64,000 bases of DNA from Escherichia coli. GTDB taxonomy: Bacteria > Pseudomonadota > Gammaproteobacteria > Enterobacterales > Enterobacteriaceae. Position 1 is the first letter of the stretch; each line of letters starts with the position of its first letter. The stretch lies in the NCBI RefSeq assembly GCF_024502345.1, contig NZ_JALDNN010000001.1; one strand, given 5' to 3'. Shown here in pieces: positions 9,843 through 26,074 of the stretch. The position numbers and the translations under genes were made by a program. The notes beneath the pieces are model-generated. The model saw only the letters and a list, made by a program, of their open reading frames with translations, was not told the origin of the DNA and did not search any database.

Positions 9843-11234
9843 TTACTGTTTTTCTGGTGGGAAAATCAGATTCAGCACGATGGCAGTAATACCGCCCGCG
9901 GCGATCCCGGAGGAGAGCAGGTTTTTCAGCCATTCAGGGGCAAACTGCAAAATCAGCGGCTGCTGAGACACGCCCAGACCAACCGCCAGCGACAGCGCGA
10001 TAATCAGAATCGCCCGACGGTTCAGCGGCTCACGAGAAACGATACGCACACCGGAGGCGGCGATGGTGCCAAACATTACAAGCGTTGCGCCGCCCAGAAC
10101 CGGTTCTGGAATGTGTTGTACAAAACCGCTCACTGCCGGGAACAGACCCAGCACGATCAACATCAGCGCGACGACAAAACCGACATAGCGGCTGGCAACA
10201 CCGGTCAACTGGATCACTCCGTTGTTCTGCCCGAAGCAGGAGTTCGGGAAGGTGTTAAACACCGCCGAAACAAACGAGTTCAGGCCGTTTGCCAGCACGC
10301 CGCCTTTCAGGCGTTTCATGTACAGCGGACCGGACACTGGCTGTTCGGAAACGTCAGAGGTCGCCGTGATATCGCCAATGGTTTCCAGCGAAGTGATCAT
10401 AAAGACCAGCATCAGCGGCAGCAGCAGACTCCATTCAATGCCAAGACCGTAATAGAGCGGCGTTGGCACCATAATCAGTTCTTGCGTCATCGGTTCGTTG
10501 CTTTCTGGCAACATGCCCATAAACCACGCCAGCGCATATCCGGCCGCCATCGCAATCACCAGTGAGGCCACGCGTAAGTAAGGGTTACGTTGACGGTTAA
10601 GCAGGATAATTAAGGCTAAGACCACGCCTGCCAGCAGCAGATTTTTCGGTGCGCCGAAGGTGTTATCGCTCATGGCTGCGTAACCGCCGCCAATTGAGGT
10701 CAGCCCCACCTGAATTAGCGACAGGCCGATAATCATCACCACAACGCCAGAAACCAGCGGCGTAATAATGCGGCGCGCCAGATGCAGAACACGGGAGATC
10801 ACCATCTCGGTGCAACTTGCCAGCATCAACGTGCCGAACAAAGCCGCCATCATGGTAGGAACATCAGCACCACCGGTTTTCAGCGCGGTACCGCCCATAA
10901 TCAGCGGGGCAACAAAGTTGAAGCTGGTGCCCTGAATAGACAACAGCCCGGAGCCAACCGGACCCCAGGCCTTAATTTGAATAATCGATGCCACACCGGA
11001 GGCAAACAGCGACATACTAATAATGTGTTGCGTGTCTTGTGCCGGTAAACCCAGCGCCTGGCAGATTAATAGCGCTGGCGTGATCACCGCAACGAACATT
11101 GCCAGCAAATGCTGACAGGCGGCAAACAGGGTTTGAGGAAGCGGCGGACGATCTTCAAGACGGTAAATCAGTTCGCTGTTTTGAGTCTGCGCAACCGGTT
11201 GCGCACTTTCTGACTCGAGGGTGGAAACAGACAT
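9843..11234 (-). CDS. xanP: Xanthine permease, NCS2 family (463 aa)
   Basis: Translation matches XanP (YicE); start at MSVSTLE. Confidence 0.9.
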
Positions 11235-11513: not shown

Positions 11514-12719
11514 ATGTTTCATCTCGATACTTTAGCAACGCTTGTTGCCGCAACGCTGACGTTGCTGCTCGGGCGTAAGTTGGTCCATTCCGTCTCCTTT
11601 TTGAAGAAATACACCATACCGGAACCTGTTGCGGGTGGTTTGTTGGTGGCGCTGGCGCTACTGGTACTGAAAAAAAGCATGGGCTGGGAAGTCAACTTTG
11701 ATATGTCCCTGCGCGATCCGTTAATGCTGGCTTTCTTCGCCACCATTGGCCTGAACGCCAACATTGCCAGTTTGCGTGCCGGTGGGCGTGTGGTTGGCAT
11801 CTTCTTGATTGTGGTTGTTGGTCTGTTGGTGATGCAAAATGCCATTGGCATTGGGATGGCTAGCCTGTTAGGGCTTGATCCGCTGATGGGGCTGTTGGCC
11901 GGTTCTATTACGCTTTCCGGCGGTCACGGTACGGGAGCTGCATGGAGTAAATTGTTCATTGAACGTTATGGCTTCACCAATGCGACGGAAGTGGCGATGG
12001 CCTGTGCAACGTTCGGTTTGGTGCTGGGCGGCTTGATTGGCGGTCCGGTAGCGCGCTATCTGGTGAAACACTCCACCACGCCGAACGGTATTCCGGATGA
12101 CCAGGAAGTCCCGACGGCGTTTGAAAAGCCGGATGTGGGCCGCATGATCACCTCGTTGGTGCTGATTGAAACTATCGCGCTGATTGCTATCTGCCTGACG
12201 GTGGGGAAAATTGTTGCGCAACTTTTGGCTGGCACTGCTTTTGAACTGCCGACCTTCGTCTGTGTACTGTTTGTTGGCGTGATTCTGAGCAACGGTCTGT
12301 CAATAATGGGCTTTTACCGCGTCTTTGAGCGTGCGGTATCCGTGCTGGGTAACGTAAGCTTGTCGTTGTTCCTGGCGATGGCGTTGATGGGGCTGAAACT
12401 GTGGGAGCTGGCTTCGCTGGCGCTGCCGATGCTGGCGATTCTGGTGGTACAGACCATCTTCATGGCGTTGTATGCCATCTTCGTTACCTGGCGCATGATG
12501 GGCAAAAACTACGATGCGGCAGTGCTGGCTGCGGGTCACTGTGGTTTTGGCCTCGGTGCAACGCCAACGGCAATCGCCAACATGCAGGCGATCACTGAAC
12601 GTTTTGGCCCGTCGCACATGGCCTTCCTGGTAGTGCCGATGGTCGGTGCGTTCTTTATTGATATCGTTAACGCGCTGGTGATTAAGCTGTATTTGATGTT
12701 GCCGATTTTTGCGGGTTAA
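11514..12719 (+). CDS. gltS: Sodium/glutamate symporter (401 aa)
   Basis: Translation matches GltS. Confidence 0.9.
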   Translation: MFHLDTLATLVAATLTLLLGRKLVHSVSFLKKYTIPEPVAGGLLVALALLVLKKSMGWEVNFDMSLRDPLMLAFFATIGLNANIASLRAGGRVVGIFLIVVVGLLVMQNAIGIGMASLLGLDPLMGLLAGSITLSGGHGTGAAWSKLFIERYGFTNATEVAMACATFGLVLGGLIGGPVARYLVKHSTTPNGIPDDQEVPTAFEKPDVGRMITSLVLIETIALIAICLTVGKIVAQLLAGTAFELPTFVCVLFVGVILSNGLSIMGFYRVFERAVSVLGNVSLSLFLAMALMGLKLWELASLALPMLAILVVQTIFMALYAIFVTWRMMGKNYDAAVLAAGHCGFGLGATPTAIANMQAITERFGPSHMAFLVVPMVGAFFIDIVNALVIKLYLMLPIFAG

Positions 12720-12721
12720 AA

Positions 12722-13588
12722 ATGAAAAAGCGTCGGAAGGAACCGGAAACGCTACGTGAACACTGTCGCCACATTTTTGGTGATGAGCCGCCAGTGCTCT
12801 GTGTATGGGAAACGGAATTTGATTACGCAGATGCCGAACTCAAGGCGCTGGCGGCTAAAGAGTGGCAGCAGATCAGCGAATGGGATTTGAGTGCTTACTA
12901 TGTACTCAATCTCGTTTATAACGAACCGATGCAAATAGAGTTGTTTCGCTATCTGTTTCCGCTCTGCCTGGCGCAATGGCATGAAACCGTTTTAGCTGGC
13001 GGTTATGGTGATCACTTCGAAGAATCCTTAATGAAGGCATTGCGTCGGCCCTATCTCTGGCAGGAGATGATGAATGCTTCCCAACGCCAGCAGGTACGGC
13101 AATTTTTACTGGACACCGCGTTGCAGCGTATGGATAACGAGCGTGGTTTCAATAACGTTCTTTGCTGGCTGGCGGTGTTCAATACTCTGGGTGGGGCCGC
13201 GCCGTTAATTCGTTCTCTCTGGTCGCGCTGGTGGGCGCTGGATACGCCGGGAAAAGCGGTGTGTGCTATTCAGTATGCCGCGCATCTAATTTATCCCATA
13301 GAAGCCAATCCGTTATGGTCGCAAGAATGGATAGGCTGGGGGCATCCATTAGGCCATAAAGATGGCTGGTCCTCTGATAATCGCGCTTTTCTTCGCCAAA
13401 TGTTAACACCTGAAATGATTGTGGCTGGCGTACAGGCAGCGGCTGAAATTCTGCGTGGTGAACCGGAAGGCGCAATGGCGGCGCGAATTGCACAGGATGC
13501 GTATGAGGCAATGGATATCCTCACTATCCAGATTGAAGATTTACTGCGTGACTTGTCTCGTGATGAGTCTGGTCATGCGTTGGAGTAA
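12722..13588 (+). CDS. Hypothetical protein, 288 aa, no recognisable domain; ATG 2 bp after the gltS stop, 3' end overlaps the recG 3' end by 16 bp
   Basis: Long ORF with E. coli-typical codon choice in an intergenic position; not antisense to any known gene. Confidence 0.5.
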   Translation: MKKRRKEPETLREHCRHIFGDEPPVLCVWETEFDYADAELKALAAKEWQQISEWDLSAYYVLNLVYNEPMQIELFRYLFPLCLAQWHETVLAGGYGDHFEESLMKALRRPYLWQEMMNASQRQQVRQFLLDTALQRMDNERGFNNVLCWLAVFNTLGGAAPLIRSLWSRWWALDTPGKAVCAIQYAAHLIYPIEANPLWSQEWIGWGHPLGHKDGWSSDNRAFLRQMLTPEMIVAGVQAAAEILRGEPEGAMAARIAQDAYEAMDILTIQIEDLLRDLSRDESGHALE

Positions 13589-18482: not shown

Positions 18483-18758
18483 TTAACGACGACCTTCAGC
18501 AATAGCGGTAACGGCTTGTAATTCAGCGGCTTCCTGCTCTTGCTGTTCCTGGCGTTCGCGAACGTCGAGGATCTGGTTGTTGATCAGACCTTCTTCGATT
18601 TCGCGCAGCGCGATTACAGTGGTTTTATCGTTTTCTTCCGGTACCAGCGGATCCTTTCCGCCTACCTGCATCTGACGAGCGCGACGCGCGGCGACCAGTA
18701 CCAGGTCAAAACGGTTACCAATTTTCTCTACAGCGTCCTGAACAGTTACGCGTGCCAT
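18483..18758 (-). CDS. rpoZ: RNA polymerase omega subunit (91 aa)
   Basis: Translation matches RpoZ. Confidence 0.95.
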
Positions 18759-18812
18759 ACTTAAAAAGCTCCACAGGTGAAGAAATGACTGGGCATAATA
18801 CTGAAATCAGGT

Positions 18813-19574
<762 letters not shown>

Positions 19575-19601: not shown

Positions 19602-21989
<2,388 letters not shown>

Positions 21990-22280: not shown

Positions 22281-22478
22281 CTATTTTTTCTCTGTAATTT
22301 TTACACTGTTTTCCAACTGCTTAATGCTGACCTGCGGGGTCGGCAACTCCTCAGGCATGGTTCCGCCAAGTTCCTGAATGGTTTGCCTCACCTTGCGACC
22401 TACGTCAAAGTGTGTGGTGTTAGCTTGCTGTTTTGAATTCACGCCATCCCGCTTAAGTTTTTCTTCTGTTTGGGTAGC
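22281..22478 (-). pseudogene. dinD: 3'-terminal remnant (about 65 codons) of DNA-damage-inducible gene dinD; 5' two-thirds absent
   Basis: C-terminal part of ORF 22281..22592 (ATQTEEKLKRDGVNSKQQANTTHFDVGRKVRQTIQELGG...KITEKK) matches the recalled DinD C-terminus and sits at the K-12 dinD position between yicC and yicG; the ORF's first 38 residues look non-coding. Confidence 0.55.
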
Positions 22479-22814
22479 TACTTTGAACCGGATAACCTCG
22501 AATGGGTGACTGGTGAGATTGGTGCGCCGCCGTTCGATGTGTCGGGTGTGGCCTACCTGCTTCATGGCATGGTGTCGTTCGATAAGCGCCACCAGATCGA
22601 ATCAACCCGGCGCACACTGGAAAGCATGGTTGCTGGTGGACTGCTTGAGCGGGTGACAGTGTATGAATCGCGCCAGATACGGCGCGGCGGTGAGACTAAC
22701 GCAACGGTCGTGCGCTACGGTTTACCCGGTCAGTGCGCTGTTATGCGCGATACTGGCGGCGCTGATAGCCTGGCTGATTCCGGTAATACTGCGGAGTTAG
22801 GTCTACCGGCATAG
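22470..22814 (+). CDS. Hypothetical 114-aa ORF inside the dinD islet; possibly a 5'-truncated gene
   Basis: ORF only; protein-like composition; no recognisable family. Confidence 0.25.
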   Translation: MGSYFEPDNLEWVTGEIGAPPFDVSGVAYLLHGMVSFDKRHQIESTRRTLESMVAGGLLERVTVYESRQIRRGGETNATVVRYGLPGQCAVMRDTGGADSLADSGNTAELGLPA

Positions 22815-22858
22815 CTTACCCGTGGAGAAATGAATCATCGAATGAGTTTGGTCGGGAG

Positions 22859-23539
22859 TTATTCCACCAGCAAAAATGGCGTTGCCCGGTCTATGACGTT
22901 GATGCCAATTAACGAGCTAACATTTCGACCATTCACAATGCTATCCCGTTCAAGCAAATGCGCTATTTTTTCTACTTCATACCAGTATTGAGCCATGAGG
23001 GCTTTGGTCTTTTCAACGAGTTTAGAAAGCATTAACTCCCTGTTAATTTGCTTATTTGTAGCGCAGATTAAATCGAGCATGTCATTTACGTTAGCCATGT
23101 CATAGCGATGAGGTAGCGAATACTTTTTGTTGAAAATATCGTTGTTTTCGTAAAGGGCTTCGCTTACTGGTCCGGCGAGGGATACAAAAGCGGCCTTTTT
23201 TGCATCGCGCTTTATACCATCCGCATAGTAACGTATGAAAGGGATAACTTTACCATTCTGCCCAACTACACCAGATTTACTATCCCGCAAACGCCCGAGA
23301 TCGTGGCTGTGAATTATGCTGTGTTTAACAACGCCCAAACACTTGGCCTCATGTACATGTTCGCCAGCAACGTAACCGTATTCATCCATAACGGCGATAA
23401 CAATATTGGTTTCACGCCCACCGATATGACCAGGAATAACCGGGACAATTGTGGCAAATTCATTACCGTTAATTGTGCCCTGATAGGCGTTCAGATGAGG
23501 GGCGGCCTCAGAAATTAATCTGCTTTTTTCGATGTTCAT
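22859..23539 (-). CDS. Hypothetical protein (226 aa), cargo of the integrase islet in dinD; no family recognised
   Basis: Uninterrupted ORF with visibly lower GC than the flanking backbone, directly downstream of an intact integrase gene; contains a His cluster (GHIGG, EHVHE, HSIIHSHD). Confidence 0.6.
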   Translation of the reverse strand: MNIEKSRLISEAAPHLNAYQGTINGNEFATIVPVIPGHIGGRETNIVIAVMDEYGYVAGEHVHEAKCLGVVKHSIIHSHDLGRLRDSKSGVVGQNGKVIPFIRYYADGIKRDAKKAAFVSLAGPVSEALYENNDIFNKKYSLPHRYDMANVNDMLDLICATNKQINRELMLSKLVEKTKALMAQYWYEVEKIAHLLERDSIVNGRNVSSLIGINVIDRATPFLLVE

Positions 23540-23761
23540 TTTCAGTCTCCGTTAGGCGGCGGTGAGATTGTCCGGGTACCACATGGTTGACACTTAGATC
23601 CAACACGTAGTCGTACCTATCCAGTGAAAACCATTCCATCACATCGCCGTATTTAGCCCGTTTCATAACGCCACCTTTTACGCTGCGCCTTATTTTGTGA
23701 TTGAGCCAGGCGGTAAGGCTTCCCGCTTTTCGCCCCGTCGGGCTAGACTCAATCTATTCAG

Positions 23762-25021
23762 TTAGTTCGCCCTTCTGAGAGGCGTCACGTTGTAATCTTC
23801 GCCCTTCTCCAGAGCCACCAGCAAGCCCGCCCACTGTGTTAACGCAGCCCGTCGCTCGTCAAAGTATTGGTGACGGTTATAAATCCCCTCTACGCCCTTA
23901 ATGCGATGATTGAGGCATCGTTCCGCCACTACCGGATCAACGCCCAGCGCTGCTAAATGGGTGCGGGCCGTGCGTCGGAAGTCGTGAATCGTGAAATTAG
24001 GCACATCCGGCATTTCGGCGCGAACCTTAGCCAGTGCTACGGGCAGGGTGCTTTCCTGAATATGGGGGATCATGCGGTTTTGCATCTTTCTGGCTGGCAG
24101 TACCCATGCGCTGTTGCATGAGAACGTTTTAAGCTCTCTCAGCCATTCGACGGCTGGCGGTGCTAATGGGATGTCTATAGCGTCGCCGTTTTTGCTGCGT
24201 TCCTCTGGCAAGCGCCATACGGCTTTATCAAAATCGAACTCCTCCCAGCGGGCGGCGCATAACTCCATTTTGCGGACGCATAACGCTAACAGTAATTTGA
24301 ACGTGATTTCGTTCTGGCGACTGAATCCCTTAGCCGTGCGCATGGCTTTGAATAGCTGGATTAACTCATCGCGGGTTAACCAGCGGTCACGGGCAACTTC
24401 TTTCCCTCCGGCGTCTGCCACCTCAAAGGCTGAACAGGGGTTAATCTCCAGCGCGTGCCGTTTGATTCCGTAGTCGAATATGCGGCGCGTCCATCTCAGC
24501 ACGTCCGTTGCTATGGTCGGCGCTCCACGGTCAACAATACTTTTCAGCATGTCGTCGATATGGCGCGGCTTCACGTCCTCTACCTTCATGCTGCCAATGC
24601 AGGGGTTTATATCTTTGTCGATACGGCGGCGGAGTATATCTGGGTGCTTCCAGCGCGGCAGGATCTGACGCTCAAAGTATTCAGCGGCAAGCTCTGAAAC
24701 GCGCATGGCATTCTTCTCTGCTTCGATCTTCGCCAGTGCTTCGGCTTTCCGTTCCTGCTTCTCTCCTGCAACGTCATAGCCCAACGCAACGCGAGCCGAT
24801 AGCTCTTTGGCTGTCTCTCTGGCCTTTGATAGTGATAGCTCGGCATATGAGCCGATAACCATTGCTCGCTGCTTACCTGCGAATTTATAGCGAAAGCGCC
24901 AGAAAGGGACTGTGTAGTTTTTGGGGTAGCAAATATAAAGGCCGTTGCCATCGGCCCTTCCTTCAAATCTATCTCCGGCCTTTATCCATGCGCGGATCTG
25001 CATGTCTGTAATCTTTGGCAT
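23762..25021 (-). CDS. Tyrosine recombinase, phage-type integrase (about 419 aa), apparently intact
   Basis: N-terminal arm-binding region (GNGLYICY...FWRFRYKF) and catalytic residues (HDFRRT ... GIYNRHQY); start placed at MPKITD because the upstream ATG at 25057 lies inside a direct-repeat motif. Confidence 0.85.
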   Translation of the reverse strand: MPKITDMQIRAWIKAGDRFEGRADGNGLYICYPKNYTVPFWRFRYKFAGKQRAMVIGSYAELSLSKARETAKELSARVALGYDVAGEKQERKAEALAKIEAEKNAMRVSELAAEYFERQILPRWKHPDILRRRIDKDINPCIGSMKVEDVKPRHIDDMLKSIVDRGAPTIATDVLRWTRRIFDYGIKRHALEINPCSAFEVADAGGKEVARDRWLTRDELIQLFKAMRTAKGFSRQNEITFKLLLALCVRKMELCAARWEEFDFDKAVWRLPEERSKNGDAIDIPLAPPAVEWLRELKTFSCNSAWVLPARKMQNRMIPHIQESTLPVALAKVRAEMPDVPNFTIHDFRRTARTHLAALGVDPVVAERCLNHRIKGVEGIYNRHQYFDERRAALTQWAGLLVALEKGEDYNVTPLRRAN

Positions 25022-25144
25022 TGCGAATACCTGAACATTGAATGGGGGTGTGTACATAAACCGATGTACATAAAACCCATTATGTACACCACTATGTACA
25101 CGGCAATCGTGCGCTTTGTTGCTTCCTCATGATAGCCCATGATA

Positions 25145-25171
25145 ACAAAAAAGCCCGACAAAATGCGGGCT
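25145..25171 (-). terminator. Rho-independent terminator of yicC
   Basis: GCCCGCATTTTGTCGGGC hairpin followed by a T-run on the minus strand, about 40 bp after the yicC stop. Confidence 0.6.
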
Positions 25172-25210
25172 TTGCTGGTTTTGTGTATCTTTGTGATAGC
25201 TCTTAAATAT

Positions 25211-26074
25211 TTACTCGATATTCTGAATCTGCTCGCGCATCTGCTCAATCAACACTTTCAGCTCAATCGCGGAGTTTGTCACTTCGGCATTGATAGACTT
25301 CGACGCAAGAGTGTTCGACTCGCGGTTGAACTCCTGCATCATAAAGTCCAGACGACGACCAACGGCTTCTTTTTTCTTCAGAATGTTGTAGGTCTCTTTG
25401 ACATGCGCTTCGAGGCGGTCCAGCTCTTCGGCAACGTCAATTCGTTGTGCCAGCAGAACCAACTCCTGCTCCAGACGGTTGTTTTCCAACTGCACCTGAG
25501 CATCTTCCAGCTTCGCGACCAAGCGTTCACGCTGCCATTGCAGGATTTCCGGCATATGGGAGCGGACTTTGACCACTTCGGCGGTGACGCCTTCCAGACG
25601 CTGCTCGATCAATGCTTTCAGTGCCTGACCTTCGGTTTCGCGCGCGACAATAAAGTCGTCCAGGGTGCCATCCAACGCCGCGAGAATTTCAGCGGCAATG
25701 GCGTCAAGATCCTGCTCCTGGGCTGCCATCACGCCCGGCCAGCGCAGAATATCAACCGGGTTGATTTCCCCTTCGTCACTCTGCATTTTTACCCAGTTCG
25801 CGGCAGTTACCAGCTGTTTAGCCAGTTTTTCGTTGAGGATCAGCTCACCTTGCGCGCTAACATCTGGCTCATAGCGCAGGGTACATTCCACTTTACCGCG
25901 CGTCAGGCGAGAACGAATACGCTCACGAACGACAGGTTCAAGGCTACGGAACTGCTCCGGCAGACGAAAGTAAGTTTCCAGATAACGCTGGTTTACCGAG
26001 CGCATTTCCCAGGTTGCGCTCCCCCATTCACCCTTGATTTCACGCCGGGCGTAGGCGGTCATACTGCGGATCAT
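25211..26074 (-). CDS. yicC: YicC-family stress-induced protein (287 aa)
   Basis: Translation matches YicC. Confidence 0.9.
   Translation of the reverse strand: MIRSMTAYARREIKGEWGSATWEMRSVNQRYLETYFRLPEQFRSLEPVVRERIRSRLTRGKVECTLRYEPDVSAQGELILNEKLAKQLVTAANWVKMQSDEGEINPVDILRWPGVMAAQEQDLDAIAAEILAALDGTLDDFIVARETEGQALKALIEQRLEGVTAEVVKVRSHMPEILQWQRERLVAKLEDAQVQLENNRLEQELVLLAQRIDVAEELDRLEAHVKETYNILKKKEAVGRRLDFMMQEFNRESNTLASKSINAEVTNSAIELKVLIEQMREQIQNIE

Follow-up and report, generated by a model that had tools for sequence, protein, structure and literature searches.

The four TGTACA repeats located directly upstream of the integrase gene (int) in the window, i.e. in the whole 64,000-nucleotide stretch of Escherichia coli DNA analyzed here, are with a probability of roughly 85% the int-proximal (P') arm of the att site of a PICI-type satellite which integrates into the last codons of yicC. 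The sequence-only reading had proposed integrase arm-type sites in an att region or an operator, and comparative evidence supports the arm-type sites: the layout of the region, additional copies of the sites at the far end of intact elements, likeness to the att site of P4, the arm-binding domain of the integrase and the co-variation of the sites with a part of that domain. Judged from sequence comparison, the repeats are most likely an ordinary feature of a known kind of element, namely P4-type arm sites in a PICI att site. In the window itself nothing more than a relic is left of them, unless they still serve the intact int as an autoregulatory operator.

The cluster is placed between the int ATG (25021, minus strand) and a terminator hairpin at 25150-25173. 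Positions 25050-25101 of the plus strand read GTGTACATAAACCGATGTACATAAAACCCATTATGTACACCACTATGTACAC, in which TGTACA is found within GTGTACAT (25050-25057), ATGTACAT (25064-25071) and two copies of ATGTACAC (25082-25089 and 25094-25101). The motif was originally described as four copies of ATGTACA(T/C) near int; their presence and position stand, with the correction that the first copy starts with G and not with A on the plus strand. TGTACA occurs 12 times in the window and four of these copies are inside 50 bp. With the background rate as its basis, a Poisson estimate predicts about 4e-6 clusters of this kind per window, and none of 300 simulated Markov-1 windows contained more than two copies per 60 bp. 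Across the whole window the heptamer is without over-representation (11 found vs 6.4 expected), and the exact 9-mer TATGTACAY is present four times, always in the cluster and twice per strand. The repeats are thus real and beyond chance. TGTACA is a palindrome and only the flanks give the unit its direction; together with the flanks the units are 10-12-bp sites with the consensus GTGTACATAA, two on the plus strand followed by two on the minus strand, 29-80 nt upstream of the int ATG. What was taken for four direct repeats is therefore a pair of sites plus a second, inverted pair.

Read in the direction of int, P'1 (GTGTACATAGTG, 25090-25101, minus strand) begins 80 nt before the int ATG, an offset (-80/-81) which is the same in most relatives, and P'2 (GTGTACATAATG, 25078-25089, minus strand) abuts it with a 12-bp period. 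P'3 (ATGTACATAAAA, 25064-25075) and P'4 (GTGTACATAAAC, 25050-25061), both on the plus strand, are inverted in relation to P'1 and P'2; P'3 is missing from several lineages, and P'4 ends 29 nt before the int ATG. Directly upstream of P'1 lies the conserved block GCAACAAAGCGCAYGATT (25102-25122, minus strand), which includes a promoter-like -35 element, TTGCCG at 25101-25106, while the accompanying -10 element, CATAAT at 25079-25084, is overlapped by P'2.

The gene itself (23762-25021, minus strand) codes for an intact tyrosine integrase of 419 amino acids, in which the Pfam domains Arm-DNA-bind_3 (PF13356, residues 4-90, E 2.8e-18), Phage_int_M and Phage_integrase were detected. The N-terminal domain resembles the arm-type domains of the HPI and HAI7 integrases both in sequence (3JU0, E 7.5e-8; 3JTZ and 3RMP, E 1.9e-6) and in fold, since the AlphaFold model of Int (pLDDT 86) gives target-normalised TM-scores of 0.89, 0.86 and 0.70 with 3RMP, 3JTZ and 3JU0, respectively. 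Identity between these domains and the Int N-domain is 26-28%; the comparison covers the proteins. In the model, residues ~31-42 form a variable beta2-beta3 hairpin made of the end of strand 2, the loop and the start of strand 3; residues 30-43 read ICYPKNYTVPFWRF, and we infer that this hairpin sits at the DNA interface.

A scan for relatives with the Int protein, one genome per species, gave 52 loci. The same plan is present in about 40 of them, with Int 62-95% identical, and these come from Enterobacterales, Aeromonas, Chromobacterium, Vogesella, Azonexus, Methylocaldum and others. In order, the plan starts with the end of yicC (…CAGATTCAGAAYATCGAGTAA) and a terminator carried by the element and surrounded by short repeats specific to the lineage; then come the conserved block AAAGCGCATGATTA, a pair of abutting 12-mers, one or two more in inverted orientation, ~20-30 nt and the int ATG. 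Relative to the ATG, the 12-mers of most Enterobacterales start at -80, -68, -54 and -40. Almost every locus has 108-109 nt between the yicC stop and the first site, while the sequence of this stretch diverges; in the window the repeats begin 109 nt from the yicC stop, i.e. from the crossover core. Elements whose Int is ~63% identical (L104, L106, L115, L035 and L036) have the same upstream plan, with a terminator, a AAAGCGCATAATTA block and GTGTACCCAAAG sites, next to a different host gene ending in ...GVTYSF*, so the same att architecture is used there with another target. A more distant relative, with Int 40% identical, keeps the order with another repeat motif. Upstream of int in Psychrosphaera (L059 3915-4174), the most distant relative found (Int 40%), there are TTGGTGGGCAAA repeats, which are closer to the P4 arm repeat TTGGGGGCA (L047 9740-10000) than to GTGTAC.

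Intact elements have another abutting pair of 12-mers from this family at their far end, exactly 59 nt before the core. This distal pair was seen in L004, L005, L006, L019, L020, L021, L030, L042, L077 and L086, ~10 kb from int, and it consists of direct repeats only. The att regions of related integrases, with which the sequence-only reading had suggested comparing the repeats, accordingly have a fixed layout and, in intact relatives, copies on both arms. Distal arm, core, proximal arm and int are contiguous in an IMG/VR contig (L077/L119) and in L086, which is an attP-like junction. The IMG/VR contig is 9.7 kb long and without early genes, and a terminal repeat, looked for as a sign of circularity, was not found in it. 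Both an excised form and a tandem array would explain the contig, so it was dropped as proof of excision. A search of IMG/VR with the conserved block CAACAAAGCGCAYGATT returned ten matches, all of them unrelated phage sequence. Tandem satellites at yicC were observed in L021 (20560-21245) and in L042 and L022, which are on the same Erwinia psidii contig; here the distal arm of one element is followed by a hybrid core and then by the proximal arm belonging to another element, in which frameshift and stop codons have disrupted int.

In an intact element the N-terminal domain of Int would bind the four proximal sites of 10-12 bp, each made of GTGTAC and ~4 lineage-specific bases, together with the two distal sites, and the core-binding and catalytic domains would work on CAGATTCA, the core within yicC. 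With constant spacings of 59 nt to one side and 108-109 nt to the other, the DNA could wrap into an intasome, as it does in lambda and P4. The position, non-random clustering and conserved layout of the sites, the boundaries of the island, the presence of an arm-binding domain and the co-variation of its hairpin with the sites are observed directly; physical binding, formation of the intasome and autoregulation we infer from them.

A close known parallel is P4: its record NC_001609 marks 12-bp stretches as "attP arm sequence repeats" (Pierson & Kahn 1987, cited in PMC7286903). In the P4 attP two abutting copies are located 53 nt from the core on one side (59 nt in the yicC satellites), and on the other side there are two abutting copies and an inverted copy touching the int ATG. 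Both P4 and the yicC satellites have 12-bp repeats, an int transcribed away from the core and an arm-binding domain of the same family, so the P4-type attP layout, with an abutting 12-bp pair per arm, inverted copies at the int start and int pointing away from the core, is found in the yicC satellites as well. The two differ in motif (TTGGGGGCAyA in P4, GTGTACATAA here), in target (tRNA-Leu in P4, the 3' end of the protein gene yicC here) and in the number of inverted copies (one in P4, two here); P4 Int is only 27% identical, and P4 itself is a different kind of element from the PICI-type satellite. Similarities extend to the int-side junction of KplE1 (CPS-53): in KplE1 IntS/attL and at P4 Pint the int promoter region overlaps the arm sites, which is also where the promoter-like match of the window lies, and sites of the directionality factor are situated between the core and the arm sites, like a second family of repeats in the window which is described below.

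It is known that P4 Int and KplE1 IntS repress their own promoters through att arm sites (PMC7286903; PMC2951348). As the sites in the window lie between the candidate int promoter and the int start codon, bound Int would, by analogy with these two systems, probably also repress its own gene. Repression was measured in KplE1 and P4, whereas here there is a weak promoter-like match and the gene for the directionality factor is deleted from the window. We do not assign an int promoter: the match over the sites (-35 at 25101-25106, -10 at 25079-25084) is a single consensus match not above chance (one found, 0.9 expected), its -10 element is poor or weak in most relatives, and a -10/-35 pair conserved across relatives, sought by eye, was not found. 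Because the match is no better than chance, autoregulation is here an argument by analogy.

Could the repeats then be only a transcriptional operator for int, used by Int or another regulator, without any role in recombination? The position of the sites between the promoter-like match and the int ATG would suit such a function, as would the precedent of P4 Int and KplE1 IntS, and in the window, which is without the second arm, regulation is the only activity still possible. We nevertheless consider a pure operator improbable, since intact elements have two more copies ~10 kb off, which keep a constant distance of 59 nt to the core and are remote from any int promoter, and since the layout equals that of the P4 attP arm repeats.

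The reading of the repeats as arm sites bound by Int is also in accordance with the way in which the sites vary. Between lineages all sites of one element change together: they are GTGTAC-ATAA in the window, FCI23 and Rosenbergiella gaditana, GTGTAC-CCAA/ACAA in most loci, GTGTAC-ACCT in Tatumella, Pantoea agglomerans and Tolumonas, RTGTAC-CAAn in Yersinia, Rahnella and Zobellella, and GTGCAC-CC in Azonexus. The aligned Int sequences show high conservation throughout the N-domain with the exception of residues ~31-42, which sort by the same classes of sites, so that GTGTAC-ATAA is paired with a C[YF]P..Y..PFW hairpin, GTGTAC-ACCT with SYRENYQTPVW, GTGTAC-CCAA with R[YFH]R..D..P.W and GTGTAC-CAAn with CYR..F..PKW. 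In 36 elements positions 7-10 of the sites track Int residues 31-42 when the rest of Int is controlled for (partial Mantel r = 0.43, 0 of 5000 permutations), while the converse partial correlation is 0.18; the lists of sites were taken by rule and assembled by hand and the elements are related, so neither this nor the permutation count given below is a true probability. In two elements from Rosenbergiella (L011 and L017) Int is 98% identical outside the hairpin and 43% within it, and nearly all differences in their upstream DNA fall on the variable positions of the sites.

The sites and the hairpin codons are only ~110-210 bp apart, and linkage could explain a part of this correlation. The distal sites, ~10 kb off, resemble the proximal sites of their own element more than those of other elements (0.71 vs 0.49 at positions 7-10; 0 of 20000 permutations), which argues against simple linkage. 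Two exceptions were noted: PK6 has ACAA/CTAC distal sites and ATAA-type proximal sites, and in the decayed second (tandem) element of L021 CCAA sites go together with an 'SYRKNY' hairpin. We tentatively suggest, giving it somewhat less than an even chance, that yicC satellites with near-identical Int cores have repeatedly co-exchanged four variable site bases and a hairpin of ~12 residues, resulting in at least four arm specificities. If so, the recognition of arm sites by P4-type arm-binding domains would follow a readable code, of which the window holds one allele, and replacing ICYPKNYTVPFWRF with the hairpin LRYRAADKIPTWRF would move the preference from GTGTACATAA to GTGTACCCAA; such specificities could also serve as an identity tag letting tandem or competing satellites at one site excise independently. 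This co-variation is the one lead that goes beyond routine annotation, as it suggests, at the level of alignments, which residues of Int read the arm sites, and could guide the engineering of orthogonal integrases.

Another explanation is that the inverted sites act as a hairpin, either in the leader of the int mRNA or as a DNA cruciform, and not as sites for a protein. The 89-nt leader does fold to a long hairpin of -30.7 kcal/mol (z = -3.5, none of 200 shuffles as good) and a terminator-like stem was called at 25062-25091. A hairpin, however, arises automatically wherever two sites are followed by two inverted ones, the repeats of the distal arm are direct only, P'3 has been lost from several lineages, the sequence of the sites follows the protein hairpin of Int, and no Rfam family matches (a search of 24900-25300 gave two sub-threshold chance matches only). 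We therefore regard a nucleic acid hairpin as very unlikely to be what the sites are for.

Slightly less credit still is given to the possibility that the sites are bound not by Int but by the AlpA-like HTH directionality factor of the satellite. All intact relatives code for an AlpA-like protein two or three genes after int, and directionality factors bind direct repeats in att arms. On the other hand, the type of AlpA does not track the GTGTAC variant: L011 and L017 have near-identical AlpA and different sites, and L006 and L019 have another type of AlpA, yet their sites are ATA-type like those in the window. AlpA type tracks a separate family of repeats instead (CTATCA or CACTCC). In the window this second family has three copies on the plus strand, TGATAGC at 25130-25136, TGATAAC at 25140-25146 and TGATAGC at 25194-25200, the last between the terminator and the core, so that they flank the element-borne terminator, with the core on one side of the group and the arm sites on the other. 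Among relatives the family is lineage-specific (CTATCA, CACTCC, TTCACG, CGCTCA) and tracks the type of AlpA-like HTH. On this comparative basis we propose these repeats as candidate binding sites of the excision (directionality) factor.

That the repeats are a chance cluster or backbone sequence, for example the dinD promoter with its LexA box, is suggested only by the proximity of the dinD locus and is hardly credible, the cluster being far beyond chance, the dinD promoter not in the window and the islet-free strains without the repeats. The last point comes from a comparison of a 401-bp query across the region with 5426 complete E. coli genomes. A match was found in 5394 of them, in most only from the yicC stop codon (window position 25211) onward, and the integrase adjoins yicC in 472. 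The islet-free order is dinD, a 220-bp spacer and yicC. This spacer (L003 3781-4000) contains the LexA-type palindrome of dinD, CTGT-N8-ACAG, and the native yicC terminator, and no TGTACA cluster was seen in it; both the spacer and the dinD promoter are absent from the window. The K-12 dinD promoter, which the sequence-only reading had named as the source that would speak against an att region, is thus excluded together with any other backbone origin, as the comparison with islet-free genomes refutes it.

In the alignment to islet-free genomes, which had been proposed for locating the boundary of the island, homology starts at the yicC stop, at the 3' end of the gene. The last yicC codons of the window differ from the islet-free ones by synonymous changes (gag/aat vs gaa/aac), which indicates that the element replaces the 3' end of the gene and brings its own terminator. 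By this comparison the true boundary of the islet lies inside the last codons of yicC and not after the terminator. The intrinsic terminator at 25150-25173 (minus strand) was at first taken for that of yicC; homology with islet-free strains starts only at the yicC stop codon, and the terminator is in fact element-borne. It takes the place of the terminator native to yicC and shields int from transcription that would run on from yicC. The att core region (25211-25231, minus strand) is formed by the last seven codons of yicC, CAGATTCAGAATATCGAGTAA, and CAGATTCA is the sole block common to both junctions. The core type, CAGATTCAG, and the arm motif, GTGTACATAA, are distinct sequences. Distal junctions are not clean copies of attB: NCCP 13963 (L006 ~10220-10240) is without 15 bp after CAGATTCA, while PK6 (L004 ~10290-10320) has a 2-3-bp scar, and the NCCP element also alters the penultimate codon of yicC from Ile to Val. 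These observations fit the 'attB drift' reported for yicC PICIs (bioRxiv 10.1101/2022.07.18.500453).

The islet is a remnant of ~2.7 kb, int and three gene fragments, of a PICI-type satellite of ~12 kb. The same int-yicC junction is present in E. coli PK6, 99.8% identical over the 401-bp query and within an element of ~12 kb which codes for int, an AlpA-like HTH protein, an AntA-like antirepressor, an Icd-like protein, a P4-family primase and PerC; diverged versions of this element occupy the same site in FCI23 and NCCP 13963. A BLAST comparison of window positions 22300-25300 with PK6 showed that, apart from at least four internal deletions, the islet and the PK6 satellite are collinear. Three non-contiguous pieces of the satellite are left over at 22475-23578 and match L004 (PK6) 10547-10839, 12252-12887 and 18679-18863. 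On the left, dinD homology stops inside the gene at 22478-22479, where the 3' 197 bp of dinD are fused to about codon 12 of the outermost gene of the satellite. The same arrangement of this left part is absent from the complete E. coli genomes of our collection. Deleted from the window are the distal core and junction, the distal arm sites, the alpA-like gene and the primase and replication genes. The features expected from an intact Gram-negative PICI (int with an alpA-type gene and a primase module, 10-15 kb, two att junctions) are found in the relatives L004, L005 and L006 and are incomplete in the window, which keeps only int and one of the junctions. By its content, then, the islet is the immobilised remnant of a PICI-type satellite with its integrase still intact. 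Since the distal core, the distal arm, the alpA-like gene and the replication genes are lost, the sites are unable to support excision.

PICIs at yicC-dinD with the att core GAGCAGATTCAA are listed in the supplement of Fillol-Salom et al. 2018 (PMC6092414), and satellites at yicC-dinD are also mentioned in bioRxiv 10.1101/2022.07.18.500453. EcCIRM13514 (core GAGCAGATTCAA) and CfCIP10159 (PMC6092414) have the same insertion site and core as found here, and PK6, FCI23 and NCCP 13963 share with the yicC-dinD PICIs a gene set of int, alpA-like HTH, icd-like, primase and perC, of which the window retains only the ~2.7-kb remnant. In the searched passages of that article and its supplement we found no description of arm-type sites. 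MGIVflInd1, MGIVmi1 and SGI1-like islands (PMC5397120, PMC8409611) likewise use a tyrosine integrase to insert at the yicC 3' end, but they are conjugatively mobilised and carry different cargo, and we liken them by target. For annotation, the comparison fixes the true boundary and the history of the islet. It also gives a complete map of attP with conserved geometry for yicC-targeting satellites, consisting of two P sites, 59 nt, the core, 109 nt, four P' sites and int. Satellites of this type are present in 472 of the 5426 complete genomes of E. coli and also in numerous other genera.

Several minor observations were made in and around the islet. The 226-aa ORF that follows int (22859-23539) is a chimera made by deletion, in which a piece of a peptidase-M41-family gene is joined to the 5' end of the antA-like antirepressor gene, and its exact arrangement has no match among the complete E. 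coli genomes of our collection. In the same window ligB (19688-21375), a single gene of 1683 bp in other strains, is split into two overlapping ORFs, 19688-20731 and 20728-21375, as a result of either a frameshift that made it a pseudogene or a sequencing error. The satellite of NCCP 13963 (L006 10403-10602) carries a tRNA-Tyr and a 'tRNA-OTHER' gene at its distal end, beside the att arm. In PK6 (L004 8833-10053) an ISKox3 element of the ISL3 family interrupts the promoter region of dinD, on the stretch that separates this gene from the distal junction of the satellite.
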